Source: a virus (lineage: Duplodnaviria; Caudoviricetes). From it: 64,000 bases of DNA. Positions within the stretch are counted from its first letter, which is position 1. Each line of letters begins with the position of its first letter. The stretch lies in IMG/VR virus record IMGVR_UViG_3300028048_000042; one strand, 5' to 3'. The position numbers were made by a program, and so were the translations under genes. The notes beneath the pieces were generated by a model, which was not told the origin of the DNA, made no database searches, and was given only the letters and a program-made list of their open reading frames with translations. Of this stretch, positions 3,654-42,390 are shown in pieces.

Positions 3654-3665
3654 AGGAAGGTATAA

Positions 3666-6264: not shown

Positions 6265-9200
6265 TTGGATAGTGTATTTGATATATACAGTGATAAAAAT
6301 AAAAAAGCTAGTGGCGATGGTAATACATCTGTGGGTAAAATTGAAAATGAAACAGCAACAAAATTAATTGCTACCCAAATTGATAAAATGTCAGAAACTT
6401 TAGAGAATGCAAACAATCAATTTGGACAATTAAAAACTGTGTTTAACGATAACCAATTGCTACCTGCAATGAATCATGTTCAGTCAATGGTTAAAGACTT
6501 GAATGAAGTTAAAACGTTGTTGTCTAATAATTCTGCTACAAGTAATGACCTAAGTCAATATTTTAGTAATGCTTCACAAGATTGTGTTAAAATGGAGCAG
6601 ATGTTTACTAACTTGTCTAAAAGTTCTGAAAACATTTCAAAAATGGCGAATGATAAGTTGGCAGCTTCCGTTTCAACTACTTCTCAAGATGTGGCTCGAC
6701 AAGCACAGGAATTAAAGAATAATCTGAGTCAGATAATGCAAATTCTTGGGCAGGTTCAGAATGCTGTAACAGAAACAACACAAGCAACACAAGGTGCTAC
6801 ACAGGATTTAAATACAGTAAATTCGCAAATTGGACAAACCTTAGAACAGCAAAAAAATAGTGCTACGATAAATCAGACAATAGCACAAAACTTAGGCAAA
6901 ATTTCTGAAAATACTCGTCAGCAATTTGATAGTGTAATGAAAGATTTGTCTGAACGTGCAGGCAACTATGAAAAACTAAATCTTGCTTTTGGAAATATGA
7001 TTTCTGATGCAAATCAAATTGCCAATGCTGAATTAGTAACTGAGCTGGAAAATTTACAACAGCAATTATCGAATGATGATAAAGACGGTTCTCAGCAATC
7101 CATTGCAAATGTTTCAAGAATTGTGGAACAAGGCAATCAGAGGATGGAACAGGTCGCAAAATATCATGAAGAAACGAAAGCGAATAGCGTTGCAAATTAT
7201 AGAAAGTTAATAGAAAACATTAAAGCAACAGAACAAAGTATAACCTCTATATTGCAGCAAAAGGAAGATGTTCTTGGTGTTAAAAACGCAGATGGATTTA
7301 AATCTGAAATTGAGTCGTTAAGAAATTTGAGAGAAGAAGTTTCAAATCAAGCAAAAACTCAAATTAACACAATTATGGAACAACAGAAAAAAGCAATTTC
7401 TGAAGCCATCAATATACAACATCAAAATCAAAATGGTGCTGTGGATAAAAATAGTTCTACATATGATTTGGTTACTTCTCAAATTATGAACGGTCAAATT
7501 CAAGGAATCAATTATGATAGATTGGTTCATGGCGTTGACGATGCTTTAATGGGATTGGAACAAAGTCGTGGTAAAAATTCTCCTTGGTATCAGTACGTAA
7601 CTACAGGTAATTTGCTTGGTAATAAAACTGAGTTAGCAAGTAATTTGCGAAATGTTCAGAGATATGGATATGCAGCACAGCAATCACAAGATGGTCTGCT
7701 AAAAGCTTTAACAGATGACCATTTGACAAATGCTCAAAAAGCACAATCTATTGGACAATTACAAGGTGCTTATAGTCCATTAATAGAGAGTATTAAGAAA
7801 ACTGCTAATGGAATGAATTTCTCCACAGGCGGTGGAAAAGGATTAACTGAACAAGATAAAAAAGTCCTCGATGGTTTTAAGGTACAAGTTGAATCTGCGT
7901 TAGATAATCTTACAAAATCTATAAATGCGATTGAAGCACATGACCCTAATGATGCTACATTGAAACAATTGCGTGAAGAACAAAAAGTTTTGCAAGATAT
8001 TAAAGATAAAGCAGATAAAGCTTCGGAATCTTCAAGTGCATTATCGAATATTTTTAGTACCATGTGGAGTGGATTGAAAAAATTCAAAAATATTCTTGCA
8101 AGTGGTTTGTCATTGCTTGGTCTTGGAGGATTGCTAAATCCTCTCACTCAACTTAAAGCAGGTATTGAACAGGAAGAAGCACAAGGAAAACGCCGTTATC
8201 GTGCAGCAAAATTAGACTTCTATATGGGTACAGGATTAAATGGTGCTCGTATGATTGATTCTGCTGATACGCAAGCTAATTATTATTGGCGTATTACAAA
8301 CGGTATGATTTCTGAGGATGAATTCTTAGATTATAATAGTGCTTTGGCACATGGTGTTGGCGGTCATTATGGTGAAAGTCAGGAAAAGGCTGCAAGCGAT
8401 ATGCACAATATCGCAAAACAGACAATGGCTTTTATTAAGACCAAAGATATTTCTACAAATTCCGCTGCAGATTTTTATAAAAATTTCTATAAAGATGCAG
8501 GTATGTCTGCGGAAGCAGCAAGTGCAGCTTTGGTAAGTGTTGCTCAAACAGCCACCACAGCAAATGTTCCTGTTGAAAAATATGTAAATATGGTTTCTCA
8601 AATGGCAGCATCGTTACGTAACCAAGGTATTAGTGCAGAACAGGTTCAAGGTTCAATGAATGCATTAGTACGTAAAGGATTACGCCCTGAAGATGCACAA
8701 AGTATGGTTGGTAGTTTTGCAAATGCCAATCAAAATATGGCAAAAGATATGAACGCTAGTGCTTTTTGGGGAATGATGGCAGGACAAGGTGGCGACCCAT
8801 TTTCATTAATTGCGGCTGGTTATAAGAGTCATAATGCTGATGGTTCTGTAAATAAACAATGGGCGAACATGATGGGGCAACGTGTGTTTGCTGAAATGGG
8901 ATTCATGGCAACTATCGGTGGAATGGACAACCCATTGGGTCAAAGTATGGCTATTGACGTTTTGACTAATAGAGGATATGGTCGTAAAGATGCAAGTATG
9001 ATTGTTGACGCATTAGAAAAAGGTGATAATGACCTTGTTGCTGATTTGTTCCAAAAAGCAGAAGACCACAAAGACGGTGGTAAAGCTATGCTTGCTGAAG
9101 CTGCTGATGAAGCTGTTGCACAATTAAAACAAGCAGGAAACCAAGTATCTGTGTTCCAAAAAATATCAACTGATATGGTTGAAATGCAGAAACAAATTGG

Positions 9201-12200
9201 TAATGCTATAAGAGATTATTTATCAGAGCCTTTGAAAAAATTTAGAGAAGGTTTTGGTGAAGTCCTTAAAACAATTGTTGATTGGTCTAAAAAATTAATT
9301 GATGCAGTAACAGGTTTGCTAGATGGTAATAGTACAGCAGGTCAAGCGTTATCATGGATGGGTGATAATCCTGGCAAAACCTTTTTAGGTGCTGTAGGAA
9401 CAGGTGCTGTATTATTTGCAGGAGCTAGGGGTCTTAAATCTTTAGGCTCAAAAGCTGTTAATAAAATTGCAGGTGGTGCTACAGGTTCAGTTATATCAAA
9501 AGCAGGTAAACTTGCTCGTGGCGGTTCTATGGGACTCGGTATGCTTGGGGCAGGTCTTGCATTAGGTGTAGGCGGTGTTGCATTAACACAACTTGTTAAG
9601 ATGTTCAGCGATGGAACAGCTACGGTTACTGCTAAAGAACAAGGTACAGCCGCGAAAAATGCAATGGATAACATAATTACAACTTATAATGCTGATAGTG
9701 TTCCTGAATATTCAAGTCCTGATTTACCAAATGATATTGTTAATGATGGTTTTGAATCACCAAATCATTTTATGGATGTTATTAATGGAGACTTTAGAGA
9801 TAAGGGTCTACAAGATGAAATTAATGACTATCAAGAAAAAGACCCATATGAATGGAGTGAGGGAACAAAAACATTAGCTGACAATGCTTTGGATATAGGT
9901 ATGGGCGTTGCCGCGGCGGCAGGATATGCAGGAAGTGCTATGTTTACACGCAATGGTAAAGCAAAATGGTTGCGTAATAAACGAACAATAAATCAAAATC
10001 TTAAAAATTTAAAAGAAGGTGTAAGAGATTTAAGATATGATGGTATTTCATTAGGCACAAGACTTTTCGCAGGTAGTTCTTATGGTAAATCACTTTGGGG
10101 CAATATGGCAAAATCCATGAAGGGATTAAAAGGCACAGGTGCTTTAGGTGCGGCTCTTACTGTTGGTGGTGATGTTTTCAGTGAATATCAGGATGCAAAA
10201 GATAATCCTGATAGATTTACCAATGGACAACGAGCAGGCCGTGTAGCATTTAAATCAGGTGGCGCACTTGTTGGAGGTGCAGTTGGTGGATTTTTAGGCT
10301 CTGCATTAGGGCCTTTAGGCACGATGGGTGGTGCTTGGGCAGGCTCAATGGTTGGCGGTTGGGCAGGCGAAAAATTAATGAATTCCCAAGTTGGTGCCGC
10401 ATTTGGTCTTGCTGATTGGCAAGGTAATGCTCGTCAAAATGAGAAAAAAGTCAAAGATTATGAAAATTCTGTTCGTCAATCAGAAGAATTATATGGTGAT
10501 GCTTCTAAGAGTATCTTGAATTCTAATAATGAAAACCATAAAGCTGTTGGAAAAGCATTAGGCGACCACGGTATAAAGGTTGAAGATGTTACTCGTGAAG
10601 AAGAACAATATATGAATGATTTGTTTAATGAATTAAAATCTAAAGGCTTTAATGAACAGTTGGCAGCATATTTAGCAGCATCGCAAATAACTGTTTATAA
10701 AGAGCAAGCAGAATTTGCGAATAAAAATGATGTTAGTTCTTTAGCTGATAGCTTGAAAAAAATTGGTCGAAATGCTTTGGATGGTGTGTCAGGAGAATCA
10801 GAAGAACAAAAACTTGCAGAACATGAATTAATGGCAAGTGCGCTATTATCAGGTACATTTTATGGCGATAGTGATATTGATACAAAAGCAGATGCTGCTG
10901 ATGCCTTTTTAAGTGCTATTAAAAATCATATTGTTCCTAACGATGAATACTTAAAAAATTGGGTAGCTGTTTATGACGAAGCAGGTATTGAGAATAGTTG
11001 GTCAAAGTATACAGAAGATGGAGAAGAGGCAGAAAAAATAAAAAAATTATACAGAGAATACGCTAAAAAATTTAGAGGTGATGATTGGTTTGATAATGAG
11101 GATAAATTAAAGATGGCAAAATGGGCTGCAATGACGGATTATGCAAGAGACAATCAAGAGTCAGGTGTAGCAAAAGATATAGCTAATGATTGGGCATATT
11201 TTGCTTCACAAAAGTATAAAAAAGAAGTTAATGACCAAACCGCAGCAATCCTTCGAGAGAAGGATGGTACACCAAAGGAAAAGGCAAATCAAATTTATAA
11301 AAATCCATATACTTTAGCTCCAAAAATCAATCCTGCAAGAACAGGTTTGCGAGAAAAATTCAGAAAAACTGTTCGTGAACAATTAGGAAAAACATATGTT
11401 GAGGGGAAAAATGGCCCTGAAGAATTTGACGATAGTGGGTTGATGGAATATGGTGGCAAACAAGCAGGTTTGACATATTTTGGTAGGCAAGCCAACAATC
11501 AATACGATTTTTTCAAAGGAAAGAATGCTTTAAAAAAATCTATAAATGAATTGACCGCAGGCGATTTGATGTTCTTCAAAGGAGATAACGGCGAAATTAA
11601 CCATGTTGGTATGTATGATGGGAATGGTAAAATCGTTCAAGCTTCACAAGGAGAAGGAAAAGTTGTTGAGGGTAATATAAATGATATTTGGTTTCGTGAC
11701 CACTTTGCAGCTGGTGGTGACTTGTCTGCTGTAGGTGCTGAAGCAGGTGCTCCTGAAAGTGGTGACGGCAGTGGTGGTGAACAAAAAACCGTTGCTGAAG
11801 TTTTGGGTGCAAGAGAAAGTCTTTATGACGCACAAATGAAACAAATTGGTGAATTTGCAGGTATGAAAGACAAAGAATTGCTAAATGATAAGATTGCGAC
11901 AGGTCAATACATTTTGGATGGCGTTAGTGCTTTATCTGCAAATGGCAATTATATGTCTATTAGAGGTGTTCGAGATTCTTTCCGTTTAAATTCAGGTGTG
12001 AAAGATAAAGACTTGTTTGGTGTTGGTCTAAAAGGTGCTTTCTCAGGTGATGGCAAAATGCTTTCTGATGCAGGCGTTCTTGAAATGGACGAGAGATTAT
12101 CAAAACAGGCAGGTGAAAAAGACAAGCACACTTATCATTTGAAAGGATATGAAGAAGCAGAAAAGTATTCTTCTGAAATGGATAAGATTGCAGAAGAAAT

Positions 12201-12435
12201 GCATGAAGCTAACAAAGAACAAAGAGAAGTTTATGCAAAAGAAAAAGAAGAAAAAGAAAAAGCCATTGAAAAAATGGATAAGTCTAAACAGACTGCAAAA
12301 ATTTCCATTACGGTTATTGGTAGTGATGGTAAAGAAAAGAAAATAATGGCTACTGAGGATGAATTGAGAGCTTTAATTGCGCAACAGAAAGAAATGATTG
12401 CTCAGTTGCATGAAGAGTTAAAACAAAGAGGATAA
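6265..12435 (+). CDS. Tape measure protein 1 with C-terminal NlpC/P60-like domain
   Basis: 2056 aa, helical/coiled coil with Gly/Ala-rich hydrophobic stretches. NlpC/P60 motifs LGKTYVEG..GPEEFDDSG..GDLMFF..HVGMYDGNGKIVQAS at ~11350-11720. Confidence 0.8.
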   Translation: MDSVFDIYSDKNKKASGDGNTSVGKIENETATKLIATQIDKMSETLENANNQFGQLKTVFNDNQLLPAMNHVQSMVKDLNEVKTLLSNNSATSNDLSQYFSNASQDCVKMEQMFTNLSKSSENISKMANDKLAASVSTTSQDVARQAQELKNNLSQIMQILGQVQNAVTETTQATQGATQDLNTVNSQIGQTLEQQKNSATINQTIAQNLGKISENTRQQFDSVMKDLSERAGNYEKLNLAFGNMISDANQIANAELVTELENLQQQLSNDDKDGSQQSIANVSRIVEQGNQRMEQVAKYHEETKANSVANYRKLIENIKATEQSITSILQQKEDVLGVKNADGFKSEIESLRNLREEVSNQAKTQINTIMEQQKKAISEAINIQHQNQNGAVDKNSSTYDLVTSQIMNGQIQGINYDRLVHGVDDALMGLEQSRGKNSPWYQYVTTGNLLGNKTELASNLRNVQRYGYAAQQSQDGLLKALTDDHLTNAQKAQSIGQLQGAYSPLIESIKKTANGMNFSTGGGKGLTEQDKKVLDGFKVQVESALDNLTKSINAIEAHDPNDATLKQLREEQKVLQDIKDKADKASESSSALSNIFSTMWSGLKKFKNILASGLSLLGLGGLLNPLTQLKAGIEQEEAQGKRRYRAAKLDFYMGTGLNGARMIDSADTQANYYWRITNGMISEDEFLDYNSALAHGVGGHYGESQEKAASDMHNIAKQTMAFIKTKDISTNSAADFYKNFYKDAGMSAEAASAALVSVAQTATTANVPVEKYVNMVSQMAASLRNQGISAEQVQGSMNALVRKGLRPEDAQSMVGSFANANQNMAKDMNASAFWGMMAGQGGDPFSLIAAGYKSHNADGSVNKQWANMMGQRVFAEMGFMATIGGMDNPLGQSMAIDVLTNRGYGRKDASMIVDALEKGDNDLVADLFQKAEDHKDGGKAMLAEAADEAVAQLKQAGNQVSVFQKISTDMVEMQKQIGNAIRDYLSEPLKKFREGFGEVLKTIVDWSKKLIDAVTGLLDGNSTAGQALSWMGDNPGKTFLGAVGTGAVLFAGARGLKSLGSKAVNKIAGGATGSVISKAGKLARGGSMGLGMLGAGLALGVGGVALTQLVKMFSDGTATVTAKEQGTAAKNAMDNIITTYNADSVPEYSSPDLPNDIVNDGFESPNHFMDVINGDFRDKGLQDEINDYQEKDPYEWSEGTKTLADNALDIGMGVAAAAGYAGSAMFTRNGKAKWLRNKRTINQNLKNLKEGVRDLRYDGISLGTRLFAGSSYGKSLWGNMAKSMKGLKGTGALGAALTVGGDVFSEYQDAKDNPDRFTNGQRAGRVAFKSGGALVGGAVGGFLGSALGPLGTMGGAWAGSMVGGWAGEKLMNSQVGAAFGLADWQGNARQNEKKVKDYENSVRQSEELYGDASKSILNSNNENHKAVGKALGDHGIKVEDVTREEEQYMNDLFNELKSKGFNEQLAAYLAASQITVYKEQAEFANKNDVSSLADSLKKIGRNALDGVSGESEEQKLAEHELMASALLSGTFYGDSDIDTKADAADAFLSAIKNHIVPNDEYLKNWVAVYDEAGIENSWSKYTEDGEEAEKIKKLYREYAKKFRGDDWFDNEDKLKMAKWAAMTDYARDNQESGVAKDIANDWAYFASQKYKKEVNDQTAAILREKDGTPKEKANQIYKNPYTLAPKINPARTGLREKFRKTVREQLGKTYVEGKNGPEEFDDSGLMEYGGKQAGLTYFGRQANNQYDFFKGKNALKKSINELTAGDLMFFKGDNGEINHVGMYDGNGKIVQASQGEGKVVEGNINDIWFRDHFAAGGDLSAVGAEAGAPESGDGSGGEQKTVAEVLGARESLYDAQMKQIGEFAGMKDKELLNDKIATGQYILDGVSALSANGNYMSIRGVRDSFRLNSGVKDKDLFGVGLKGAFSGDGKMLSDAGVLEMDERLSKQAGEKDKHTYHLKGYEEAEKYSSEMDKIAEEMHEANKEQREVYAKEKEEKEKAIEKMDKSKQTAKISITVIGSDGKEKKIMATEDELRALIAQQKEMIAQLHEELKQRG

Positions 12436-12451
12436 ATGGAAGGATATTGAA

Positions 12452-15400
12452 ATGGCAACTTTACAAACAGCGTTCCAAAAATACGCTACGAATACAGTTA
12501 ACAAACAAATAAAGTCTTCTATTTCTGATGTAAAATCGGCAATAAAGAAGTTGGAAAAAGTTCGTAAAACTTCTATAAAAGATAAACAAGAGTTGTTGAC
12601 TGAAGTTGAAAAATATATAGCGAATCTGCGTACTTGCCTTACAGAATTGAAAAAGTTAGACGAGGTTGATTTTTCAAATGCAAAAATAAAACACCAAGTT
12701 GCACAAAAGGACGCTTTGGAACAGTTGAGAAACTATGAAAATGCGATTTCAAAATATAATATTTCTGTTTTGACTTTGGCAGATTCTCTTAATATTGATA
12801 AAACAAGTATGCAGGCTTTACATGAAGCCTGCATAGCCCCTATGGGGGTTTCAATGTGGCAAGAACTGCTTGCAAGTGTTTCTTTAGCAACAACAAAGAA
12901 TTTCAGTCAAGGGCAATTAGCTTATGAGGAAAATTATCGAAAAACTTTATCTGCATCTATTGGTGATATTGCTTATGATATGTATTTACCGACAGCGCAA
13001 TATAATCCTATAGGTGGAATAACGACACAAGCTGATATTGAAGAAACAGTAAAAAAAGCATTAGACCCTTTTATTGAAGCACAGAATAGGATTATAGAAA
13101 ATGCAAAAGATTTTGAAAATCAAAAGCAAGGAAAAGAACAATTAGCCACAAAGCAAAGATTAGCGTTTTTAACTGAATTGAGTCAAACGATTCAACAGCA
13201 ATATCAAACAGGTACAATTACTACGGATTCTCGTCAAAAAGCAAATAAGCTTTTGCAGATGATGGAAGATTTTAATAATAATCTTGATAAAGCTATTATG
13301 GTAGATATTACACTTTCGGAAGGACAAATGTCTGAATTAAACAGAGAATTTATTAACTGTACCGAAAAACAAAAACAATTAAAAGATTATATTGAAAAAT
13401 TTGATAAACAGATTTTAAAAAATTCAACGGAAAAGATTCAATCGTTAGATAGTATTAATAAAGCTATTATAGATACAATTGAAAGCTTAACTACATCTTA
13501 TTTGGTTTTGATGGATAACAATATTGGAGATATAACAGATTTGTCTCCTGTCTTAAATAGTTATGCTAAATATTTTTCTCAAATCGGACAAGGTGGAGAA
13601 GTAACACAAGGTATTGAAAATGCAATGCGTAATACGTATTATAATACCAAACTTGGAAATGCTTTTTCTTCAGGGAATTTGCAAAAAGCGTACTTGGGGT
13701 TAAATACTATTGACCGAACAGGTTACGAAAATAGATTTTCCACTTATAACAATGAAACGTTGAGAAATAAAATACAACAAGGTATTTACTTAAATGAACA
13801 ATTTAGAAATGATTATAAGGATTTTGGGGAGGTTGGATATAATGGTATAACTGTACAACATGCTCAAAGCACATTAGTTCCTATTGCTTCTCAAAGTGCA
13901 GATGTACATATAGATTTGTTAAAAAATAGTCAACAAAATATTTTATTGACTCAAAAAGATAAAGAAACTCGTCAGTATATTGTGAATTCTGCAAAAAAAA
14001 TAGTTGAAGATATTGACAAATTGCTTTATAGTTTTGATTCATTGGAAGAAAAACCAAAAGCATATGAAGGATTAAAAAAACAAAAAATTGAACTCGAAGA
14101 AGAAATTGAAAAAATTGAAAATATGGGCAGTTCGTTTGACAAATTAAAAAAATTCTTGCAAACGCTTAATTCAATGAAAAATAAAATGATTGGTGGTTTG
14201 GGTGCAATTTTTGGAGCAATGGGTATAGGACAATTATTCCACCCGTTACAGATGTTAGGCGAAATAATCAACCAAATGAATGAAATGGGACGATTGAGAT
14301 ACCAAACGTCTATGGCTGATTTTAGTGCAGGACATAGTATGAATGTGGGGCTAAATGAGTACATGAGTTATACGCTTCCTAAATACTATTATGATTTGTC
14401 TTATGGACAAATTGATAGGACAAAACCTTTGGCAATGTATAAAGGTTTAATTAAAAATGTTGGTGGACATTATGGCGCAAATACAACAAATGACTTATCA
14501 TGGATGGCTTCTCAAATTGTTGCTGATTCAGAATTGTTTGATTTGGGTGATGGAGAAATTTTTGCATTTTTAAAAACCTTCTATAAAGATATGGGAGATA
14601 GTGCTACTGAAGCAATGCAAAAATTGCGTAGCTTGGAAACCTTTGCACAATTATATAACATTCCAATGGAAAAAATGCTGTCGTTAATTAATGGAATGAC
14701 AGAAGGAATGCGTTCTTTGGGTGTATCTTCTCGTGTGGTTCTTAATTCTGTAACAGGATTAGTTCGTATGAATAAAATGCGAATTGAAGATGCCGCTGAT
14801 TTAGTTCAATCTACTGCGACAAATGCAGATAAAATGTCAAAAGATTGGTCACGTAGTATTTTTTGGGGAATGATGAGTCAAATTAATAAGGGCGAACATA
14901 TGGATGACCTTTTTGACCTTGTTTTGGATGGATATAAGTCTCATTTTGCAGATGGGTCTGTAAATGAAAAATATTATGATTCTATGGTGGATAGATTATT
15001 TGCAGAAAGTGAATATTTTGGCACTCGTTGGGGTAGTGACCAAGATATGAATGATACAGATATGGGTTCTCACCTCTTAGACCAAGGTTATAATTTAAAA
15101 CAAACAGCAGAAATTATTCAACTGAAAAAAGAAGGTAAATTAGATGAATTAAAGAAAAAACTTAAAGCTTATGATGAATACAAAGACCCTCTTGCTCCTG
15201 CTGAAAAAACAAAAGAGTTTGCAGGACAGATTAAGACAATTGCAGAACAATTGGCAGAGACAACGAAACTCCAAGCAACTCTTAATAGCAAATTAAATGA
15301 AATTGCACATATTATTGATGAAAAGTTAGGCCCCACTCTTGAAAAAGGCAGAGGATTTATTCATGCAATGTTGAAAAAATATGGAAATGCAATGGCAGGT

Positions 15401-18214
15401 TTAATTGCAGGTGTAGGAGGACTTTTAAATTCACCAATAGGTAAGTTTGTTGGAGATTCATTCGCGAAGCATCCTTTTTTGACTATGGCTAGTGTTATGG
15501 GCGTATACAAATTAGGCAAATACGGTCTTGGTCAAGTGGGAAAAACTGCCAAAGCAGGTAAAATGAGTTTGCCGATGTTTTTGGCGTTAGGCACAACAGG
15601 TTTAATGTCTGCTTTAGTGACAAATGATTATTTGACAGAAAATTTAAAAGCTGAACAAGATGTTACGGATTCAGGTTACGAAGACCCTGCAACTGTATTA
15701 GTACGTATGTTCAATAATGGTACAGCAACAGCTAATATTATTTTTGACAAAGATACAAAAGATGCACAAGAAAATCTTATATGGAGAGCCACAATGGGGT
15801 TGCTTCTAGCAGGTGCTCCATATTTGGCTTATAGATTTGCTTCTCGATTTATGAGGTCAAATCCAAAAAGTGCAAGAAAATTCGATGTATCACAATTAAA
15901 AGAACGTCTAAAGTCTAGGTTAAAACAACTTACTCCCCAACAAAAAAAAGAACTTCAACAATACAAAGAACAAATGATAAGGTGGAGAAATAAGCAAAAT
16001 AGACGAGCACAAGAAATTTATAATACAATGCTAGAAGCACACAGAAAACGTGTTGCAGAAATTATTGCAATTAATGAATATAATGCAAAGGTTAGAGCAA
16101 AAAATAAGGAAATTATCGAAACAAGAATTAGAAGATTAAAAAGATTAAGGCAGTTAAGAAGAAAATCAGGAAAATATTTTAAATTAAGGAATAGAATGCG
16201 TTCTCTTCGAGGTGGATTAAAAGATTTCGGACTTAATTTGCTCGTTTCTTATGGTATTGATTTACTTACAGGTGAAAACCCTGAATCTGTCACTGATGAA
16301 ATTGGCGATTTGGCGTTAGATGCAGGGGCAATGACTGTGCTTTCAAGGAAATTTGGATTAAAAGGTGCGATTGCAGCTCCTTTTGTAACAGCAGGTGTAA
16401 AATCATTCTTGGGAGGTAAAAAAGCAGAAGCATCTCCATTACATAATGATTATTGGCCTTCAAAACCTGAAACACAAGGTACACATAATCCTGCCGAAAG
16501 TCAACGAGAAGAGGAAATGTTAAATTATCAGCAGGAAATGGCAAGGCAAATGAGTATTAATGGCTCATTTTATCGTCAATCTGATGATTGGGATGATATT
16601 TCAGAGAAAATTGGTAAAAGCAATGATGAATTAAAACAAGAAGTAAGAGAATCTTTAGGTAGACATGGTGTTAAATGGGATGAATTATCTGATTATGAAA
16701 AAAGAATATGGACTGACTCATTTAATAAATATCAAGAAATAATGGGCGATTATTTAAAAGCTATTGAACAAGCTACTAAATTAGTTTTGGCTATAAAATC
16801 TTCAAGTTTTAATTCTCAAAGCTATGACCCTGCTGGTTCAGGTAATAATGTATTTAATGCAAAGGTTGTTTATGAAAGATTGAAAGCGGCAGGTTATAGT
16901 GAAGAAGCAACTATTGGTATTATGGCTCGTTTAATGGGCGAACATCACTTCCAAACATCTGATGTTCCTCTCTATGAACCAGGTGGCGGTCTTGGTACTT
17001 GCGGTGGTTTGGGTATTATGCAATGGCAGGGTGAACGTAGAGAAAGATTGATGAAAAATCCCAATTACTTAGATATTGGTGTTCAAGTTGACTTTATGAT
17101 TGATGAAATGAAACAAAAAGGATATGGGCCTGATAAAATGAATCAATATAATGCTAGTGAAGCAGCATATTGGTTTACTAAAGATGTTGAAATCGGTAAT
17201 TTTACAACTGAACAAGAAAATATTGCATCAATCAGAGCATTAAGAGCAAGTAATTTTTCAGGCGCACAACAAACAAAGAAACCCCCTTCAAGTTTTTTAG
17301 GCGGTGGGGGAGGAATAAGATGGCAATCACAGTTTGAAAATGGTGGTAGTGATAGATGGTGTACATCTGCTGCTTTTGGTATGTTATACAATTCATTGCA
17401 TGGTACAACTTATGATGTTAATTATATTCATGCTAATATTTGGAATGGTAATTCACATAGTGTAGATAATATATTGTCAGAGCTTGGATTGCAAGGAAGT
17501 GTTTTGTATGGTAAAGCAGGCTTAGATGCTGCTTTACAAAAAGGAACACCGACATATATGTATTTTCAGGATGATGCTTATAATGCAAAAGTAAATTCAG
17601 GTACTGGAACACACGCAGTAATTATTCAAGCTAATGGTCAAGGAGGATTTACATATTATAACCCTGCAAGGACAAGTGAAAGTGAAGGTATAGGAACAAT
17701 TTCTTACGAAGAATTGGCAAATACAATTAGTGGTAGAACTGAATTCCTTGTACCTGATTCCTTTAATAGTAAATATAGTGGTAAGTTTAATGTTAAGTTG
17801 CCACAGCTCAAACCATACAAGCCAAAAACAATAAAAGAAAATTTCGAAGATAGCATTAAAGCGTATCAAAAAGCAATTGGGTTTGATGGTAAAAAAACTA
17901 TTAAGGGAAGAATTATTAATGGTATGTATGTTGACCCTAATCAAAAATTTGTTTCAATTGAAGATGAAATTAAGAAATTGAAAAAAGATTATGGAGTTTC
18001 ATCAAGCGATGTTACTGCTGCTGAAAGTGAAAAAGCTGTAAAAGATGCTACGAAAGCTAGTTTAGAACAAGCAAAAAAAGTTGCTGATAAAAATTGGGCA
18101 GATGTACAGGCTGCAAGAGAAGCCCAAGGCATTCGAATTAATTCCCTTATCCAAAAGGTCAAAGCCTTGTTAAAAAAATATTTTGATAATGTTGAAATAA
18201 GAAGTGATATTTGA
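12452..18214 (+). CDS. Tape measure protein 2 with phage tail lysozyme and C39-like peptidase domains
   Basis: 1920 aa paralogue of TMP1. Lysozyme-like GYSEEATIGIMARLMGE..GLGIMQW..QVDFMIDEM (~16850-17250); papain-like SQ..WCTSAAFGM..HAVII..YYNP (~17310-17760). Confidence 0.75.
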   Translation: MATLQTAFQKYATNTVNKQIKSSISDVKSAIKKLEKVRKTSIKDKQELLTEVEKYIANLRTCLTELKKLDEVDFSNAKIKHQVAQKDALEQLRNYENAISKYNISVLTLADSLNIDKTSMQALHEACIAPMGVSMWQELLASVSLATTKNFSQGQLAYEENYRKTLSASIGDIAYDMYLPTAQYNPIGGITTQADIEETVKKALDPFIEAQNRIIENAKDFENQKQGKEQLATKQRLAFLTELSQTIQQQYQTGTITTDSRQKANKLLQMMEDFNNNLDKAIMVDITLSEGQMSELNREFINCTEKQKQLKDYIEKFDKQILKNSTEKIQSLDSINKAIIDTIESLTTSYLVLMDNNIGDITDLSPVLNSYAKYFSQIGQGGEVTQGIENAMRNTYYNTKLGNAFSSGNLQKAYLGLNTIDRTGYENRFSTYNNETLRNKIQQGIYLNEQFRNDYKDFGEVGYNGITVQHAQSTLVPIASQSADVHIDLLKNSQQNILLTQKDKETRQYIVNSAKKIVEDIDKLLYSFDSLEEKPKAYEGLKKQKIELEEEIEKIENMGSSFDKLKKFLQTLNSMKNKMIGGLGAIFGAMGIGQLFHPLQMLGEIINQMNEMGRLRYQTSMADFSAGHSMNVGLNEYMSYTLPKYYYDLSYGQIDRTKPLAMYKGLIKNVGGHYGANTTNDLSWMASQIVADSELFDLGDGEIFAFLKTFYKDMGDSATEAMQKLRSLETFAQLYNIPMEKMLSLINGMTEGMRSLGVSSRVVLNSVTGLVRMNKMRIEDAADLVQSTATNADKMSKDWSRSIFWGMMSQINKGEHMDDLFDLVLDGYKSHFADGSVNEKYYDSMVDRLFAESEYFGTRWGSDQDMNDTDMGSHLLDQGYNLKQTAEIIQLKKEGKLDELKKKLKAYDEYKDPLAPAEKTKEFAGQIKTIAEQLAETTKLQATLNSKLNEIAHIIDEKLGPTLEKGRGFIHAMLKKYGNAMAGLIAGVGGLLNSPIGKFVGDSFAKHPFLTMASVMGVYKLGKYGLGQVGKTAKAGKMSLPMFLALGTTGLMSALVTNDYLTENLKAEQDVTDSGYEDPATVLVRMFNNGTATANIIFDKDTKDAQENLIWRATMGLLLAGAPYLAYRFASRFMRSNPKSARKFDVSQLKERLKSRLKQLTPQQKKELQQYKEQMIRWRNKQNRRAQEIYNTMLEAHRKRVAEIIAINEYNAKVRAKNKEIIETRIRRLKRLRQLRRKSGKYFKLRNRMRSLRGGLKDFGLNLLVSYGIDLLTGENPESVTDEIGDLALDAGAMTVLSRKFGLKGAIAAPFVTAGVKSFLGGKKAEASPLHNDYWPSKPETQGTHNPAESQREEEMLNYQQEMARQMSINGSFYRQSDDWDDISEKIGKSNDELKQEVRESLGRHGVKWDELSDYEKRIWTDSFNKYQEIMGDYLKAIEQATKLVLAIKSSSFNSQSYDPAGSGNNVFNAKVVYERLKAAGYSEEATIGIMARLMGEHHFQTSDVPLYEPGGGLGTCGGLGIMQWQGERRERLMKNPNYLDIGVQVDFMIDEMKQKGYGPDKMNQYNASEAAYWFTKDVEIGNFTTEQENIASIRALRASNFSGAQQTKKPPSSFLGGGGGIRWQSQFENGGSDRWCTSAAFGMLYNSLHGTTYDVNYIHANIWNGNSHSVDNILSELGLQGSVLYGKAGLDAALQKGTPTYMYFQDDAYNAKVNSGTGTHAVIIQANGQGGFTYYNPARTSESEGIGTISYEELANTISGRTEFLVPDSFNSKYSGKFNVKLPQLKPYKPKTIKENFEDSIKAYQKAIGFDGKKTIKGRIINGMYVDPNQKFVSIEDEIKKLKKDYGVSSSDVTAAESEKAVKDATKASLEQAKKVADKNWADVQAAREAQGIRINSLIQKVKALLKKYFDNVEIRSDI

Positions 18215-18275
18215 CTGTAATTAAATTATTGTTAGAGTAGAAGATTAAAAATTATACCGAAAGGAAGATTATATA

Positions 18276-18713
18276 ATGGCAAAGAAAAAGTCTGATAAAC
18301 TTGTTGCTGATTTACTTGCGGATTTGATTGAAAGTCCACAGGATATTGATTATGTAGAATTGTTTGATAAGAAGTGGGGTTTTCGTCAGATTACAACAAA
18401 AGACCATTTGGGAGTTTTGAAGAAAACACAGGCTCTTAATAAAGATGAAGCTGCTCGTGTTTTTGGTATTACTCTTGAATATTTACGCAATGCACTTGTC
18501 AGTGTCGAAGGTATTATCCTTACTGATGAACAGAAATCTCAGTTGCTTGAAAATATTTCTCCTGCAATGCTGAACGCTTTGTTCTTTGAATTTGAAAAAG
18601 TTTCAAGACGAAAAGCTGATGAACGAATTGAATCCGAAAAGGCAGAAGAAACAGAATCTGATGAAGATGAAGCTGATGAAAAAACAACTAGCAACAATGT
18701 AATTGATGCCTAA
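18276..18713 (+). CDS. Second tail assembly chaperone (short form)
   Basis: KKWGFRQITTKD..LEYLRNALVSVEGI matches KKWTFKTLTPKE..LEILKSAIVAINDI of 5281..6246; precedes TMP3. Confidence 0.6.
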   Translation: MAKKKSDKLVADLLADLIESPQDIDYVELFDKKWGFRQITTKDHLGVLKKTQALNKDEAARVFGITLEYLRNALVSVEGIILTDEQKSQLLENISPAMLNALFFEFEKVSRRKADERIESEKAEETESDEDEADEKTTSNNVIDA

Positions 18714-18721
18714 AAAAAATG

Positions 18722-18750
18722 AAAGCAAGTGGTTAAACCACTTGCTTTTT
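18722..18750 (+). terminator. Terminator-like near-perfect palindrome
   Basis: AAAGCAAGTGGTT-a-AACCACTTGCTTT then TT. Confidence 0.7.
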
Positions 18751-18796
18751 CTATTGTTTAGTTGTAGAGATTTTTTGTGTTTAGGATGGTGAAATA

Positions 18797-21700
18797 ATGT
18801 CAACAATTGATGAAATTCAATCAAACATTCAAGAAGAAGACCAAGAATTGTTTGATACACTGCAAAGTGTTTTTACTTTAAAAAGTGATATAACAAAAAT
18901 TATTGAAAATAAAAATAATCAATTTTTGCAATTAAAAGAAATGTTGGAATCAATTGCTGATTATGTTAAACAGGAGCAACATTTACGTCAAGTTATTGCA
19001 GAAAAAAAAGTTAATGATTTAGATGAAATTCAACGGATATTTAATGCTCAAAATGAAGCTATGTCCGAATTATATCATGGTTATTATAAGGCTAAAGAAG
19101 AAAGCGACCAAAAATTAGAAGGTTTTATAAGCGATTTAGCGGAGGTTATTGGAGGTCTTACTTCAGCCCATAATCAATTGATAGATGTTGTGAAAAGAGA
19201 TTATCCAAATTTTGGAAATCAAATTAAATTCGTTTCAGCACAACATAAAAAAATAATTGATGCAATTAAAAAAGTATATAATCAAGAAAGACAAAGAACA
19301 ACTGAACAAACACAAAAAATAGATGAATTCATACAGCAGACTCAGCAAGTAAAAGAAAGTGAATCTCTCTCTAATATTAACCGTTCTGTTACGCAGCGAT
19401 TAAATGCTTTGATTAATAAGATTGTTTCAGATAACGAAATATTATTAACCAAAGGCACTTTTGTTAAAAATAATAATCGTGAATATTATCGTGTAAAGGA
19501 TGCAATGGAAGAAATTACACGAAAGCTTAAATATTCTCGTGAGTTGGGGGACGAAGAAAATTATTCAGATAGTTTATCTAAATTGTTAATAAACACGAAA
19601 CAAATTGTTACTATAATGTCGGAAGATTTTAATAATTGGAAAGATTTAAAATATGAGGACATTGCAGGATTTAACAAAAAGATAGATAAATATGATGGAC
19701 TGTCTGCATTAAATCAAGAGATTTTAAATGAATTGAATCCTGATAAATTTAAAGATGAATTTGCAGGGTTTAATGAAGTGATGCGAAATGCACAAAAAAT
19801 CTCAAATGAAAAATTAAAACAATTCATAAGTGATGGAATTAATTCGTATAGACAAAATCCTTTAGGCAAATTTGATTATATTAATGGTAATAGAGGTCTT
19901 ATAGATAGGACAAAAAAAGTTGCCAATCATGTAGATTATCAATCTTTGCATGACCCTGCACATATGAATTTTGCAAGAGCAAGAGCAGGGTATACGAATG
20001 TACTAAATTCAATCCATGAAGAACATTTAGAGGTTGCACAAAGAAGAGCACAATATGCAGGCACTGATAAAAATAGGGATGCTATTATTAATCAGGAAAT
20101 GCAAAAGTTGACTAGGGAAGATTTTAAAAACGGTAGATATACACAACCACTTATAGATTATAATGATAATTTGTTAAAATCTGCCAAGTTAGAAAAAAAA
20201 TCTTCAAAAGAAACCTCTAAAAATTTAGAAGAAGCAATCAAAACTACATATAGTCAAATTTATGCAATTTCGCATTTTGACCCTCAGAGTAAACTACTTG
20301 ATAAACTACGCTCTCAATGCAAAATGTTAGAAGATACAAAGAGAGATGTGGACGCAACACTAAAAGATAAAAAGACAATTCAGCTAAAAGATTTTCTAAA
20401 AAATCCATTGAAAGCAGCAGGATTAGGTACGCTTTTAACGTTGTTAGGTGCAGGAGGATTATTTTCTTTCAATAAATGGAAGAATATGATTAAGAGTCAG
20501 GCTGACAAGTCAGGGCAATTAATGTACAACAACTATCTGATAAATGCTAGTGCAGGTCTACCAATGGGTTATGGAGCATTAGACAGGGTATATAATCAAG
20601 GACGTACATTATATGCTATATCTAATGGCATGGTAGGATTTGAAGCTCCAACAAAAATGTATCATTCGCTAATCAAAAGAGTTGGTGGTGGTATGTATGG
20701 TGGAGCAAAAGACCCACAAGGCTTGTCAGCTATGGCAAAATACATGACATTACCTGCGCAATTATATGATATAAACGAAAACACTTTGGCTGATTTTGCG
20801 AATAGTATGTATAAAACCAACAAAATGAGTTCCCAAGATACATTAGATACACTCAATAGAGTAATGAATGATGCAAAAAGAGCAAATGTACCAATGGAGA
20901 AATATATTAAATTAATTTCTTCGATGGCAACTCAAATGAGACATTTGGGATATAATGGTAGACACGCTGTTGGTATTATGACGCATATGATTAATAGAGG
21001 TATGCGTGTAGAAGATGCTCATGCGATGCAAACATCCATTTTAGGTGTACAGACGAACTATTCTAAGAATAAAAGTAATGCTGTATATGCAGTTATGACA
21101 GGTCAAGCAGGCAACATGTGGGCAGGTATACTAATGAATTTGAAAACGCATGATGCTAATGGCGACCCAATAGGGAATCGCCAAAAAATGATTGGTCAGC
21201 AGATGAAAGCCGAATTAGGATTTTATCAATTTGGGTTTAGTGAAAATCCTGAAATGCAAAGATTTTTGATGGCACAAAAACTGCAAATGATGGGTTTTGA
21301 TAGACAGCGTATTGCACAATTAACAGACACTGCAATTTCAGGTAGTGATGAAGATTTAGGCAAATTACTTGAAGGTTTTGAAGAAGAAGACATAGCCAAG
21401 ACAGAAAAAGCAGCAGACGGATTAAAACGAATGGCAGCAGAATTAAAAACTGTTGGAGCACAAGTAAGCCATTGGCAAAAGATGAAAACCGATATGACTG
21501 TTGCAGCAAATAAAATAGCAGAGAGTTTGGGAAGTCATCATGCCGCAATGCAAGAATTGTCTGAAATGATTCACAATCAAATTAAAAATTTAACACCTGA
21601 GTACACAGAATTTATCAAAAAAATCGGTGAATTACCTGATAAGATAAAGAAATTTAAGGAAGAACATGGTGAATTAACAAGCTTTATATTAGCCCATCCT

Positions 21701-24700
21701 GTGCTTGCACTTGCAGGAGTATTAGGCGGTACATATTTAGGGTATCGTGGACTAAAAGCTTTGGGCAAGAAAGCATTTAGCCATTGGAATGACCCTAAAA
21801 CAGGTAATTCTTCTTCAAATAATGCTAAAAGTAATAAGAAATCATCTTCAAAAGGCGGTGGAAAAAACTCTTGGTGGAATAAAGCTAAGAATGGTGCAAA
21901 AAAAGCGAAGGGTTTGTTTGGCAAAGGTAAACTAGGATTTCTTGGTGGCTTGGCAACAACCTTATTATTAGGTAATGATATTGCTAATGCTAGTGCTCTT
22001 GATAATTATGAAGAGGAAGATTTAGAAGATAAAACTGAGGATGAACTCTCAGTAAAATTCCTTCAGATGTTTGCTACAGGTGAAGCAAAAGCAAGGTTAA
22101 GGAAATCAGATGGTTCACCGATGGAAATTTATGGTGAAACAGCAATGCAAACTTGGTTGCGAAATGAAATTGGTATGTCTGCGCAAGGGTTGATTAGTGG
22201 AGGAATATTTAGTGCTATATTGTTGAAGAAATTGTATGATTTGATAAAACGAAAATATTCCAAACTAAAAAAATTTCCAAAATTACCCCCATTACCCCCA
22301 TTACCTATGAAGGAAAAACTTTTGAGTGGAGTAGAGTCTGTCAAAGATAAATTATCAATGGGAGAATTAGGCTCTATTTTAAAGAATGAAGTAAAAAGTA
22401 GTTCACCGAGTATAGGTATTGATGGAGGAAAAGGTAAATTTGGTTCTACGTTAAAGAATACTGCAAAATGGTCAGGTGCATTTAATTTAATATCTGAATT
22501 TATGGACACTGATTCTCCATATACCACAAGTCAAAAAATTGCAAGAGCAGGTATTGATACAGCAATTGATACACCGATTTATGCGGTAGCTTCAAAAATC
22601 AGTCCGTGGCTTGCTTTAGGATTACCTATAGCTAGTTGGGGAATTGGTAAAATAACAGGCACAGACCCATTAGCGTGGATGCATGAAAAAGCGAAATCAT
22701 ATTTTGGATTATCTAGCGAATTGGATAAATATAACGCTCAATTCTTAGAAACATTGTTTAATGATACAGAAATGGATGCGGATAGTTTCCTAGAATTATG
22801 TGAAAAAAAAGATGAACAAGGGAAGTTAATCAAAGAATACATGAAAAAAAATGGTGTAGACTTTGATAGCATGACCGAAGTAGAAAAGAAAATTTTTGCT
22901 GAAGAAATTAAGAGTTTAGGAAATGCTACAGCTACGTTGGCACAAATTATGGCATTAGCAATAATAGCAGCAAAAGAAGCACAAAAAAGGCGCAAAAACC
23001 CAAATCATAACGGTAAAAAATTAAAACCTTGGGTTGAAAAAACCATAGAAGATTGGGCAAATAGTGCTTTTGATGATAATGATAACATTAAATGGGGCGA
23101 AGCATTAGTAGGTATTGAATGGTTGATTAAAAAGAATTATGAAATAGTTCAAAACCCTGATGCAAGTGATGAAGAAAAACAAAAAGCACAAGACCTTTTA
23201 GGTACATTGTTTAATATGCGTGCAGTTGCCAAATATAAAATTGGTGGAGAAGACCATGATGAAGTTGTAAACGAAATGGTAACAGGTGCGAATGAATCTT
23301 ATGCAGATTGGATAGCAAGCGGTCAGGCAACTAAAAAATTACCTGCTAATATGCAAATTGTATTAAATGATGGATATAAGGCAAGTATTCAAAAAACAGT
23401 AGATAGTTTAGATTGGGGCTTTGTAAAAAAAACAATGGAAGGTTCTGAATTTAGTTTTGAAGACTATTTTGATGAATATATTGCTGATTATATGGGGCAA
23501 TGGAGTGGAGATTTTTTCAATAATAAAGACTTGGTTAAACAAGCATATATCGAAGCAAAATCTCAAAAAATACTTGAAGAAGCTAATCCTGACCAAGTAG
23601 AAGATGTAGGTGCGGACTCCCCATTACCTGAAATAACAAATCCTATTGATTCAGAGGGTAACGAAGGAACTATTAATGGTATGACTGTATATCGACAGTT
23701 TGACCCTCGTTGGGCTGACAATGTTATTGCAGGTAGCAGCACAATGCGCGAAGCAGGGTGTGGCCCTACATCATTTGCTATGGTTGCTTCTGCACATGGC
23801 TCACATTATAGCCCTTGGCAAATTGCACAAATATTTGCACAAAGAGGAATTTATATTCCTGATGTAGGTAGTGATGCAAGTAAATATCCTGAGTTAGCAA
23901 GAGAAATGGGTTTTGAGCTTATACCGACAAAAGACAAAGATTATGTAAAACAGATGTTAGCATCAGGACACCGTGTAGTTGCAGCGCATGGCAGAGGTAA
24001 GTTTACAAAAAGAGGACACCACATGGTATATGCAGGATTAAATCAAAATGGTAAATTGTTAATTGCAAATCCAGGTCGTGATGAATCTGTATATACAGAA
24101 TATGATGTAGACGAAGTATTAAATGATGCAGGTGGTGATATAGATTGGTATGTAGATACAGGTGAAGGTACAGTTATAGATGGAGCTTTGGGTAATTTAA
24201 ATTTGGGTAATTTAAATTTAAGCGGTTTAGCTTCATACAAACCACTTACGATTAAAGAAGCACACGAACAAAGTGTTGCGGCATACCAAAAAGCAATAGG
24301 ATTTAGTGATAAAAATGCAGTACAAGGTCGAATAATCAATGGTATGTATGTAGACCCAAATCAGTCATTTGTTTCTATTGAGGAATTAAAAAAACGAATA
24401 ATTGCAGAAAGAAATGGCGAAATCTACCAATCAAAAGAATTGGAAAAACCACCTTCTGAAAAAGAAATTAAAGATAGTGGAGAAGATGCTGCAAATAAAT
24501 CTGTTCAAAGAGAATCAGAAAAAAAAGCAAAAGAAGCTGAAGAAAAACGTAGAGTTTTACAATTAGCTATTCAAAAGCAGAAACAACAAGAAGAGCAAGA
24601 AAAGGCAAAAGAAGCTGATGTAGCACATCTAAATGTATATGGTGAATTAAAAAAAGGTATGAGTATGGCTGATTTTCATCGAGAATTGGAAGAAATATTA

Positions 24701-24748
24701 TCATCAATGAATTTTGACCCTGATACTGCAATTGTAGATTTTGATTGA
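18797..24748 (+). CDS. Tape measure protein 3 with C39-like peptidase domain
   Basis: 1983 aa paralogue of TMP1/2. YRQFDPRW..AGCGPTSFAMV..FTKRGHHMV..IANPG at ~23680-24160. Confidence 0.78.
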   Translation: MSTIDEIQSNIQEEDQELFDTLQSVFTLKSDITKIIENKNNQFLQLKEMLESIADYVKQEQHLRQVIAEKKVNDLDEIQRIFNAQNEAMSELYHGYYKAKEESDQKLEGFISDLAEVIGGLTSAHNQLIDVVKRDYPNFGNQIKFVSAQHKKIIDAIKKVYNQERQRTTEQTQKIDEFIQQTQQVKESESLSNINRSVTQRLNALINKIVSDNEILLTKGTFVKNNNREYYRVKDAMEEITRKLKYSRELGDEENYSDSLSKLLINTKQIVTIMSEDFNNWKDLKYEDIAGFNKKIDKYDGLSALNQEILNELNPDKFKDEFAGFNEVMRNAQKISNEKLKQFISDGINSYRQNPLGKFDYINGNRGLIDRTKKVANHVDYQSLHDPAHMNFARARAGYTNVLNSIHEEHLEVAQRRAQYAGTDKNRDAIINQEMQKLTREDFKNGRYTQPLIDYNDNLLKSAKLEKKSSKETSKNLEEAIKTTYSQIYAISHFDPQSKLLDKLRSQCKMLEDTKRDVDATLKDKKTIQLKDFLKNPLKAAGLGTLLTLLGAGGLFSFNKWKNMIKSQADKSGQLMYNNYLINASAGLPMGYGALDRVYNQGRTLYAISNGMVGFEAPTKMYHSLIKRVGGGMYGGAKDPQGLSAMAKYMTLPAQLYDINENTLADFANSMYKTNKMSSQDTLDTLNRVMNDAKRANVPMEKYIKLISSMATQMRHLGYNGRHAVGIMTHMINRGMRVEDAHAMQTSILGVQTNYSKNKSNAVYAVMTGQAGNMWAGILMNLKTHDANGDPIGNRQKMIGQQMKAELGFYQFGFSENPEMQRFLMAQKLQMMGFDRQRIAQLTDTAISGSDEDLGKLLEGFEEEDIAKTEKAADGLKRMAAELKTVGAQVSHWQKMKTDMTVAANKIAESLGSHHAAMQELSEMIHNQIKNLTPEYTEFIKKIGELPDKIKKFKEEHGELTSFILAHPVLALAGVLGGTYLGYRGLKALGKKAFSHWNDPKTGNSSSNNAKSNKKSSSKGGGKNSWWNKAKNGAKKAKGLFGKGKLGFLGGLATTLLLGNDIANASALDNYEEEDLEDKTEDELSVKFLQMFATGEAKARLRKSDGSPMEIYGETAMQTWLRNEIGMSAQGLISGGIFSAILLKKLYDLIKRKYSKLKKFPKLPPLPPLPMKEKLLSGVESVKDKLSMGELGSILKNEVKSSSPSIGIDGGKGKFGSTLKNTAKWSGAFNLISEFMDTDSPYTTSQKIARAGIDTAIDTPIYAVASKISPWLALGLPIASWGIGKITGTDPLAWMHEKAKSYFGLSSELDKYNAQFLETLFNDTEMDADSFLELCEKKDEQGKLIKEYMKKNGVDFDSMTEVEKKIFAEEIKSLGNATATLAQIMALAIIAAKEAQKRRKNPNHNGKKLKPWVEKTIEDWANSAFDDNDNIKWGEALVGIEWLIKKNYEIVQNPDASDEEKQKAQDLLGTLFNMRAVAKYKIGGEDHDEVVNEMVTGANESYADWIASGQATKKLPANMQIVLNDGYKASIQKTVDSLDWGFVKKTMEGSEFSFEDYFDEYIADYMGQWSGDFFNNKDLVKQAYIEAKSQKILEEANPDQVEDVGADSPLPEITNPIDSEGNEGTINGMTVYRQFDPRWADNVIAGSSTMREAGCGPTSFAMVASAHGSHYSPWQIAQIFAQRGIYIPDVGSDASKYPELAREMGFELIPTKDKDYVKQMLASGHRVVAAHGRGKFTKRGHHMVYAGLNQNGKLLIANPGRDESVYTEYDVDEVLNDAGGDIDWYVDTGEGTVIDGALGNLNLGNLNLSGLASYKPLTIKEAHEQSVAAYQKAIGFSDKNAVQGRIINGMYVDPNQSFVSIEELKKRIIAERNGEIYQSKELEKPPSEKEIKDSGEDAANKSVQRESEKKAKEAEEKRRVLQLAIQKQKQQEEQEKAKEADVAHLNVYGELKKGMSMADFHRELEEILSSMNFDPDTAIVDFD

Positions 24749-24752
24749 TGTG

Positions 24753-24784
24753 AAAACACTCCTTAATTTAAAAGGAGTGTTTTT
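24753..24784 (+). terminator. Rho-independent terminator after TMP3
   Basis: AAAACACTCCTT...AAGGAGTGTTTT. Confidence 0.75.
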
Positions 24785-24893
24785 AATTTTCTTAGTATAG
24801 AGTTTGTTTATATAGTTTATAGAAAAATAAAGCAAAATATAGAAATATTTTCTATATTTTGCTTTATTTTTATTTTTGAAGGAGTGATTTGTA

Positions 24894-25454: not shown

Positions 25455-25490
25455 GATGTAAAAATTTTTAATTAAAGGAGGTGAATTAAA

Positions 25491-42329: not shown

Positions 42330-42390
42330 TTTTTTTGAGTGATAATCTTATTCTTAGAGTAGGAGAACAGTGAAAGGACTGAGATAATAG

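Follow-up and report, generated by a model that had tools for sequence, protein, structure and literature searches.

Most phages encode a single tape-measure protein (TMP), the textbook case of one protein length fixing the size of a structure. The locus analysed here lies in a 64,000-nt stretch (hereafter the window, whose positions we use) of the IMG/VR record IMGVR_UViG_3300028048_000042, and carries three genes, TMP-A, TMP-B and TMP-C, which we assign to full-length tape measures on gene order and homology. In the phage collection that we searched, Bacillus phage G (Donellivirus) was the one relative that has been cultured. It has the same order of sheath (gp178), tube (gp179 and gp180), chaperone (gp181 and gp182), tape-measure (gp183) and baseplate genes. 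Its gp183, annotated as "tapemeasure" and as "tail protein with lysin activity", has lysin domains in the C-terminal part, as do the window TMPs; it was detected in phage G virions (PMC12484599). Yet phage G has one 2893-aa tape measure and one chaperone gene with a programmed frameshift, whereas the window has three tape measures of about 2000 residues, a long chaperone read in a single frame and a separate short chaperone. By these likenesses, the locus is the tape-measure unit of an uncultured phage-G-like giant myophage, in which one gene became three, with a second chaperone gene. Our best reading, to which we give a probability of about one half, is that TMP-A, TMP-B and TMP-C share one tail tube as a mixed, probably heterotrimeric, ruler.

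Other described systems resemble parts of this arrangement. Two adjacent potential tape measures have been noted, without a mechanism, in the Staphylococcus jumbo phages MarsHill, Madawaska, Machias and DC4 (10.1101/2020.12.14.422802; PMC10638138). Like the window TMPs, they are adjacent, same-strand giants of matched length (1990 and 1962 aa in DC4), helical and with transmembrane segments, and they carry different wall hydrolases (M23; PF18013 with PF00877), as the cassettes of the window TMPs also differ. However, they are two genes and not three, and their published accounts contain no length co-variation, second chaperone or co-assembly. Nor are they detectably related to the window TMPs, since no Staphylococcus phage was among the tblastn matches of full-length TMP-A and TMP-B in the phage collection; the lysozyme part of TMP-B had no match there. 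An earlier note on this DNA had suggested an undescribed system. Our literature search for multiple, second, duplicated or heterotrimeric tape measures returned no publication that describes three tape measures or a heteromeric tape, which agrees with that suggestion, but pairs of adjacent TMP-like genes were already on record in the Staphylococcus phages. Muralytic activity within the tape measure itself has been described for mycobacteriophage TM4 (Tmp; PMC1796659) and, as cited in PMC4870245, for T5 (Pb2; Boulanger et al. 2008). Their tape measures too unite ruler and infection-time cell-wall hydrolase in one protein, but these are encoded by single genes and act as homomers, whereas the window has three diverging paralogs with exchangeable cassettes. 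Finally, the gpG/gpGT pair of lambda provides the model for the chaperones: short and long forms with a common N-terminal part, encoded immediately before the tape-measure gene. The frameshift that makes them persists in phage G. In the window, by contrast, the long form is a plain open reading frame (ORF) in which a slippery site is not conserved, and the short form apparently comes from a paralogous gene between TMP-B and TMP-C.

The earlier note had called ORFs of 2056, 1920 and 1983 aa; their coordinates proved exact and none contains an internal stop. Five sets of motifs that it had picked out are indeed collinear, at residues 698/670/629, 766/735/696, 852/827/782, 1112/1085/1090 and 1435/1405/1352 of TMP-A/TMP-B/TMP-C. 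Pairwise BLASTP relates TMP-A to TMP-B (E-value (E) 2e-49, 30% identity over 589 residues) and to TMP-C (E 2e-41, 23% identity over 1073 residues, from about residue 40), and TMP-B to TMP-C (E 7e-27). A profile of 14 cores delimits a common core of about 470 residues (601-1072 in A, 573-1040 in B, 534-1008 in C), which in all three matches phage G gp183 (E 3e-18, 2e-13 and 5e-11, respectively). Hydrophobic Gly-rich segments flank the core in the three proteins (in TMP-A at 609-628, 1039-1115 and 1333-1352), and each has a conserved module 100-170 residues before its C-terminus. TMP-B and TMP-C have a common motif near the C-terminus that is 53% identical (hhalign 99.4%, E 8e-22); the conserved C-terminal motif of TMP-A gave no significant hhalign match to that of B and C (E 0.08). 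The C-terminal part of TMP-C, used as a query, returned five proteins and hence a shallow alignment. BLASTP, core homology to gp183 and synteny together bear out the claim of three full-length tape-measure paralogs in one myophage tail module. The similarity is far greater than chance would give, and by it A, B and C descend from a single tape-measure gene through old duplications.

The Pfam tape-measure models match below their cut-offs. TMP-A reaches 18.7 bits with PF10145 (cut-off 33.2) and 17.7 bits with PF20155 (cut-off 41); in the same search the best E of TMP-C was 0.49 and TMP-B had no match. Sub-threshold matches occur among the 14 cores, to PF10145 in seven (best E 1.6e-6) and to PF20155 in five. 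A sequence-profile search of PDB with the core profile returned matches at chance level only. Since Pfam matches stay below the cut-offs, our assignment of the three proteins as tape measures is by synteny and gp183 homology and not by Pfam membership.

The homolog search gave 76 clusters, from gut and rumen-type assemblies. Relatives in IMG/VR were found by a scan with a three-row alignment of B; the same scan with the single A core as query gave no match, and neither did megablast of the whole region against the phage collection. The order long chaperone, A, B, small ORF, C recurs in every contig with enough flank (L002, L003/L004, L005, L007, L008/L009 and L010-L014). The A cores of these contigs are 36-51% identical to that of the window, and all the genes are intact. 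Decay of the extra copies in relatives, which the earlier note had named as evidence against its proposal, is thus not what we find: all three are intact in 11 related contigs. A maximum-likelihood tree built from the cores has well-supported clades for A and for C, each with the window, L002, L003 and L005. The B clade contains the window, L002 and L003, and the tree gives the middle gene of L005 no clear placement. Because the A, B and C clades span diverged contigs with intact genes, the triplication is, on this tree, old and maintained.

Copy number is not three everywhere. The 172-kb contig L006 has two tape-measure copies with a small ORF between them, and phage G has one. The free tree pairs both L006 copies (83/98), as an independent duplication in that contig would. 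Yet placing L006 copy 2 with the C clade is not rejected by the approximately unbiased test (p 0.32), and the L006 short chaperone is closest to the other short chaperones. A stepwise history of one, two and three copies, as now seen in phage G, L006 and the window, is therefore plausible.

The lengths of the three proteins bear most directly on how they may be used. Ten genomes provided all three lengths (Table 1), and for correlation close relatives were collapsed, leaving 8 lineages.

Table 1. Lengths (aa) of the three tape-measure paralogs in the window and nine relatives.
Genome	TMP-A	TMP-B	TMP-C
Window	2056	1920	1983
L002	2023	1876	1865
L003	1923	1951	2016
L005	2248	2165	2155
L009	1940	1952	2020
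L010	1956	1963	2024
L011	1932	1793	1689
L012	2067	1947	2082
L013	1906	1837	1849
L014	2028	1838	1952

Total lengths are correlated between A and B (r = 0.83), A and C (r = 0.72) and B and C (r = 0.85). The spread of lengths within a phage is smaller than in shuffled sets (permutation p 1e-4; p 0.006 without L005, the longest phage). The co-variation is not evenly distributed along the proteins. The N-terminal segment is near-constant, at about 605 (A), 575 (B) and 550 (C) residues, and does not co-vary, and the core is fixed at about 470 residues. It is the post-core segment, of 690-1150 residues, that carries the co-variation, although the enzyme cassettes located there differ among orthologs. 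Chains lying side by side in one tube are expected to have equal and co-varying totals, which is not the case if they lie end to end or if only one of them is the ruler. The matched lengths pointed out in the earlier note are thus present both as a match within phages and as co-variation between them, and they make chains running in parallel within one tail likelier than chains placed end to end. Given the small sample and the relatedness of the lineages, we regard the co-variation as suggestive of a shared tube and not as proof of it.

Three rulers in series would build a tail about three times as long (~0.9 um). This would account for the need for three genes, and giant phages can have very long tails. 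But chains in series have no reason to be equal or to co-vary in length, each copy has its own C-terminal module of the kind found at the baseplate end in solved tails, and the phage G tail is measured by one 2893-aa chain. We consider this arrangement very improbable.

If A, B and C are all rulers within the same tail tube, how might such a tube be built? Solved tails contain three TMP chains per tail (PMC11445458). Hence the simplest composition would be one A, one B and one C, i.e. a 1:1:1 mixed trimer. Loading of the chains would fall to the two chaperones, GT-like (long) and G-like (short). The ruler itself would be the conserved N-terminal half, made up of the near-constant N-terminal segment and the core. 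In the myophage phi92 the C-terminus of the TMP is at the baseplate (PMC13450770). The variable C-terminal third of the window proteins would likewise lie at the baseplate end and be the first part out upon contraction, where it would cut the wall. This third would carry exchangeable cell-wall enzymes (lysozyme/transglycosylase, papain-like and NlpC/P60 peptidases), and a mixed trimer could thereby bring up to three enzyme sets per tail without enlarging any chain. A complex prediction with the C-terminal parts of A, B and C scored 0.13 (mark 0.32), and we counted it neither for nor against binding.

The enzyme cassettes themselves tell a more complicated story. The C-terminal domains named in the earlier note, NlpC/P60 in A, tail lysozyme in B and C39 in C, all score above their cut-offs, but the one in A lacks the nucleophile Cys, and the second domain in B is C39-like by predicted fold only. 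In TMP-A the nucleophile position is occupied by Asp (FDDSGL; GAT at 11431-11433), where seven of seven aligned orthologs have DCS; the His column is kept. The 98%-identical relative P0007 keeps the Cys, and P0006, from another assembly, has the same Asp. The NlpC/P60 domain of TMP-A is thus probably inactive or repurposed in the window genome. In one subclade, the A proteins of L003/L009 type have no recognisable enzyme domain at all. In P0005, the TMP-A core is 99% identical to that of the window and the NlpC/P60 cassette only 52% identical (P0005 1679-1836 versus window TMP-A 1680-1830), which indicates a recent exchange of the cassette inside the tape-measure gene.

The second domain of TMP-B was matched by neither PF13529 nor PF03412 with E-values up to 1 admitted, and BLASTP against the TMP-C domain is not significant. 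Its AlphaFold2 model, built on a three-row alignment, is of moderate quality (predicted local distance difference test 72, predicted template-modelling score 0.73). This model has a Foldseek probability of 1.0 to the C39 peptidase domains 6mpz, 5xe8 and 3erv and to PCAT1, and the domain contains Gln, Cys and His in order, invariant in the three aligned sequences. It is this predicted fold, with the Gln/Cys/His set, that points to a papain-like, C39-type peptidase. Among 1.8 billion representative proteins, significant matches over the full domain were limited to P0083 (2386 aa) and P0084 (2293 aa), with a weak match in P0085 (353 aa; E 3e-5), and the domain seems almost restricted to proteins of tape-measure size. 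Other B orthologs carry quite different cassettes at this position. TMP-C has Peptidase_C39_2 in the window and SLT in several relatives. Because cassettes differ and swap between orthologs, the C-terminal third is, as far as these comparisons go, an exchangeable enzyme rack. That each strand would deliver a different muralytic activity, as the earlier note put it, was an overstatement: A lacks the catalytic Cys, one A subclade is free of enzymes, and the cassettes are freely swapped. Since the A enzyme is probably inactive here, enzyme diversity cannot be the sole reason for keeping three copies.

Such variability might suggest that just one of the three proteins is a ruler, the two others being TMP-derived ejection or lysin proteins, held in the lumen or the baseplate and limited in size by the available space. 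The cassettes are the most variable parts of these proteins, the lengths of B and C co-vary more tightly than those of A and B or of A and C, and the second TMP-like gene of the Staphylococcus jumbo phages has been annotated as a tail lysin (10.1101/2020.12.14.422802). But a pure lysin has no need for a conserved, near-constant N-terminal half of 1000 residues, and the core, the hydrophobic segments and the C-terminal module have been kept in all three proteins over deep divergence. We find two passengers riding with one ruler distinctly unlikely.

The organisation of transcription raises another question. TMP-A and TMP-B follow the long chaperone with gaps of 17-19 nt, each with its own ribosome-binding site. 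Between the short chaperone and TMP-C, a strong hairpin followed by a T run is present in 12 of 12 genomes, with stems of unrelated sequence. A TTAG..(A/G)GTAGA-like motif occurs at 18233-18245, 18760-18775, 42355-42367 and ~46610, upstream of the short chaperone, of TMP-C and of other structural genes. In relatives, too, it precedes TMP-C, and it may serve as a late promoter element. The conserved hairpin before TMP-C and the recurring upstream motif make TMP-C probably a separate transcription unit.

Separate regulation of this terminator-bounded unit would be welcome if each paralog formed its own homotrimeric tape, the phage making three kinds of tails of equal length with different enzyme loads as bet-hedging against cell-wall states or hosts. 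Phage G, with its one gene, works with a homomeric tape. Cassettes are exchanged fast, even between 99%-identical strains, as are host-range-type modules, and matched lengths would also be needed if all tails had to fit one sheath and fibre design. Two observations make us doubt this scheme. First, A and B are on one tightly packed message and have homologous cores, and it is hard to see how the other chain would be excluded from a growing tail. Second, with the A enzyme probably inactive in the window and missing from one subclade, an A-only tail would lack a lysin. Three kinds of homomeric tails are thus an unlikely outcome, albeit one to be taken seriously.

The mixed ruler itself faces several difficulties. 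A 1:1:1 trimer is not obligatory for this type of tail, since two copies suffice in L006 and one in phage G. The length co-variation rests on about 8 independent lineages and is weaker without L005. The N-terminal segments are offset by a fixed 25-65 residues without co-variation, which puts the chains somewhat out of register. Globular enzyme domains count towards the number of residues but contribute little to physical length. Finally, TMP-C may differ from A and B in amount or timing, since a conserved terminator, and possibly a promoter, separates it from them.

The chaperones changed along with the tape measures. Two parts of the 321-aa chaperone have counterparts in phage G: residues 16-110 in gp181, and residues 133-194 in the frameshifted extension of gp182 (tblastn joint E 6e-15). 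In phage G DNA this extension is in a different frame, whereas in the window the G and T parts are in one. In all relatives the gene immediately before TMP-A is an ortholog of the long chaperone (304-330 aa). It is a single ORF in 12 of 12 genomes, none of which showed a programmed -1 frameshift between the G and T parts. We also considered TTTAAAA (5610-5616, codon 110), in frame at the G/T boundary, as a -1 slip site that would give a short form of ~113 aa with a stop after four codons. The 11 orthologs do not conserve this heptamer, and others like it occur at ~1% of codons here, so that its presence is probably due to chance. Orthologs of the short chaperone, of 122-174 aa, precede the final TMP gene in each relative, L006 with its two copies included, and the one in L003 matches phage G gp181 (E 1e-6). 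All multi-copy genomes have this second chaperone gene, and phage G has gp181 only. The short and long chaperones here thus seem to be made from two genes and not from one frameshifting gene. What is new here is the 145-aa chaperone paralog, the in-frame 321-aa chaperone and the hairpin before TMP-C that is conserved in structure.

One may push the argument further and propose an obligate mixed trimer of three tape measures, with two genes replacing the frameshift chaperone pair and three independently exchangeable enzyme sets per tail. This would be the first heteromeric viral ruler and a route taken more than once by giant myophages; we hold this extended version to be possible but doubtful. 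The main interest of the locus is that it makes a heteromeric ruler testable. If the mixed ruler is real, a ruler of three different chains of equal length would be a new design principle, and would account for the packing of several wall-cutting activities into one injection device by very large phages whose hosts have thick walls. Phage G, L006 and the window, with one, two and three copies, would then form a natural series from homotrimer to heterotrimer in steps. The apparent swap of a programmed frameshift for a second gene is a small and clean evolutionary case. There are also practical consequences: annotation pipelines expecting one tape measure will mislabel two of these genes, and predictions of tail length from gene length must know which copies count.

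The features of the region are listed in Table 2. The genes in the window are ordered as sheath, two tube genes, an HNH endonuclease insert, long chaperone, TMP-A, TMP-B, short chaperone, TMP-C, an IS607-like pair and baseplate genes.

Table 2. Features of the tail module, in window coordinates.
Feature	Position	Strand	Evidence
Tail sheath gene, C-terminal part (frame open from base 1)	40..900	+	phrog_279 and phrog_2839, E 2e-29; slot of phage G gp178
Two tail-tube paralogs	982-1623 and 1643-2317	+	both match phrog_985 (E 1e-21, 9e-19)
Long tail assembly chaperone (321 aa), with G and T parts read in a single frame	5281..6246	+	matches phage G gp181/gp182
TMP-A, 2056 aa, TTG start	6265..12435	+	ORF/translation; gp183 E 3e-18; phrog_6700 E 1.7e-25
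NlpC/P60 domain of TMP-A, residues 1708-1809	11386..11691	+	PF00877, 48.5 bits (cut-off 23)
TMP-B, 1920 aa, ATG start	12452..18214	+	phrog_6700 E 8e-16; gp183 E 2e-13
Phage_lysozyme2 (PF18013) domain of TMP-B, residues 1469-1581	16856..17194	+	51.4 bits (cut-off 28.2); sub-fragment 55.8 bits
Papain-like, C39-type cysteine peptidase fold in TMP-B, ~residues 1624-1774	17321..17773	+	predicted fold; without Pfam match
Short tail assembly chaperone (145 aa), a paralog with just the G part	18276..18713	+	E 1e-13 against the 321-aa chaperone (111 aa aligned, 32% identity)
Intrinsic-terminator-like hairpin between short chaperone and TMP-C	18721..18749	+	13-bp stem and T run
TMP-C, 1983 aa, ATG start	18797..24748	+	core versus gp183 E 5e-11; C clade support 95/97
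Peptidase_C39_2 (PF13529) domain of TMP-C, residues 1631-1759	23687..24073	+	32 bits (cut-off 24); fragment 36.2 bits
Terminator-like hairpin directly 3' of TMP-C	24751..24785	+	14-bp stem and T run

The module also hosts several mobile or selfish elements. The gap between the tube and chaperone genes is a hotspot for them: in the window (2469-4769) it holds the HNH endonuclease and a 367-aa ORF, in L002 (5651-6955) and L005 (6047-7339) a TnpB, and in L003 (5578-8202) an intein-bearing DNA methylase. The IS607-like pair (24894-26711) adjoins TMP-C within the tail operon and consists of a serine recombinase of 186 aa (phrog_6620) and a TnpB-like protein of 406 aa (phrog_506); L009 and L010 have no such insert after TMP-C. 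A perfect palindrome with arms of ~23 bp lies at 24823-24871, ~38 nt past the TMP-C terminator.

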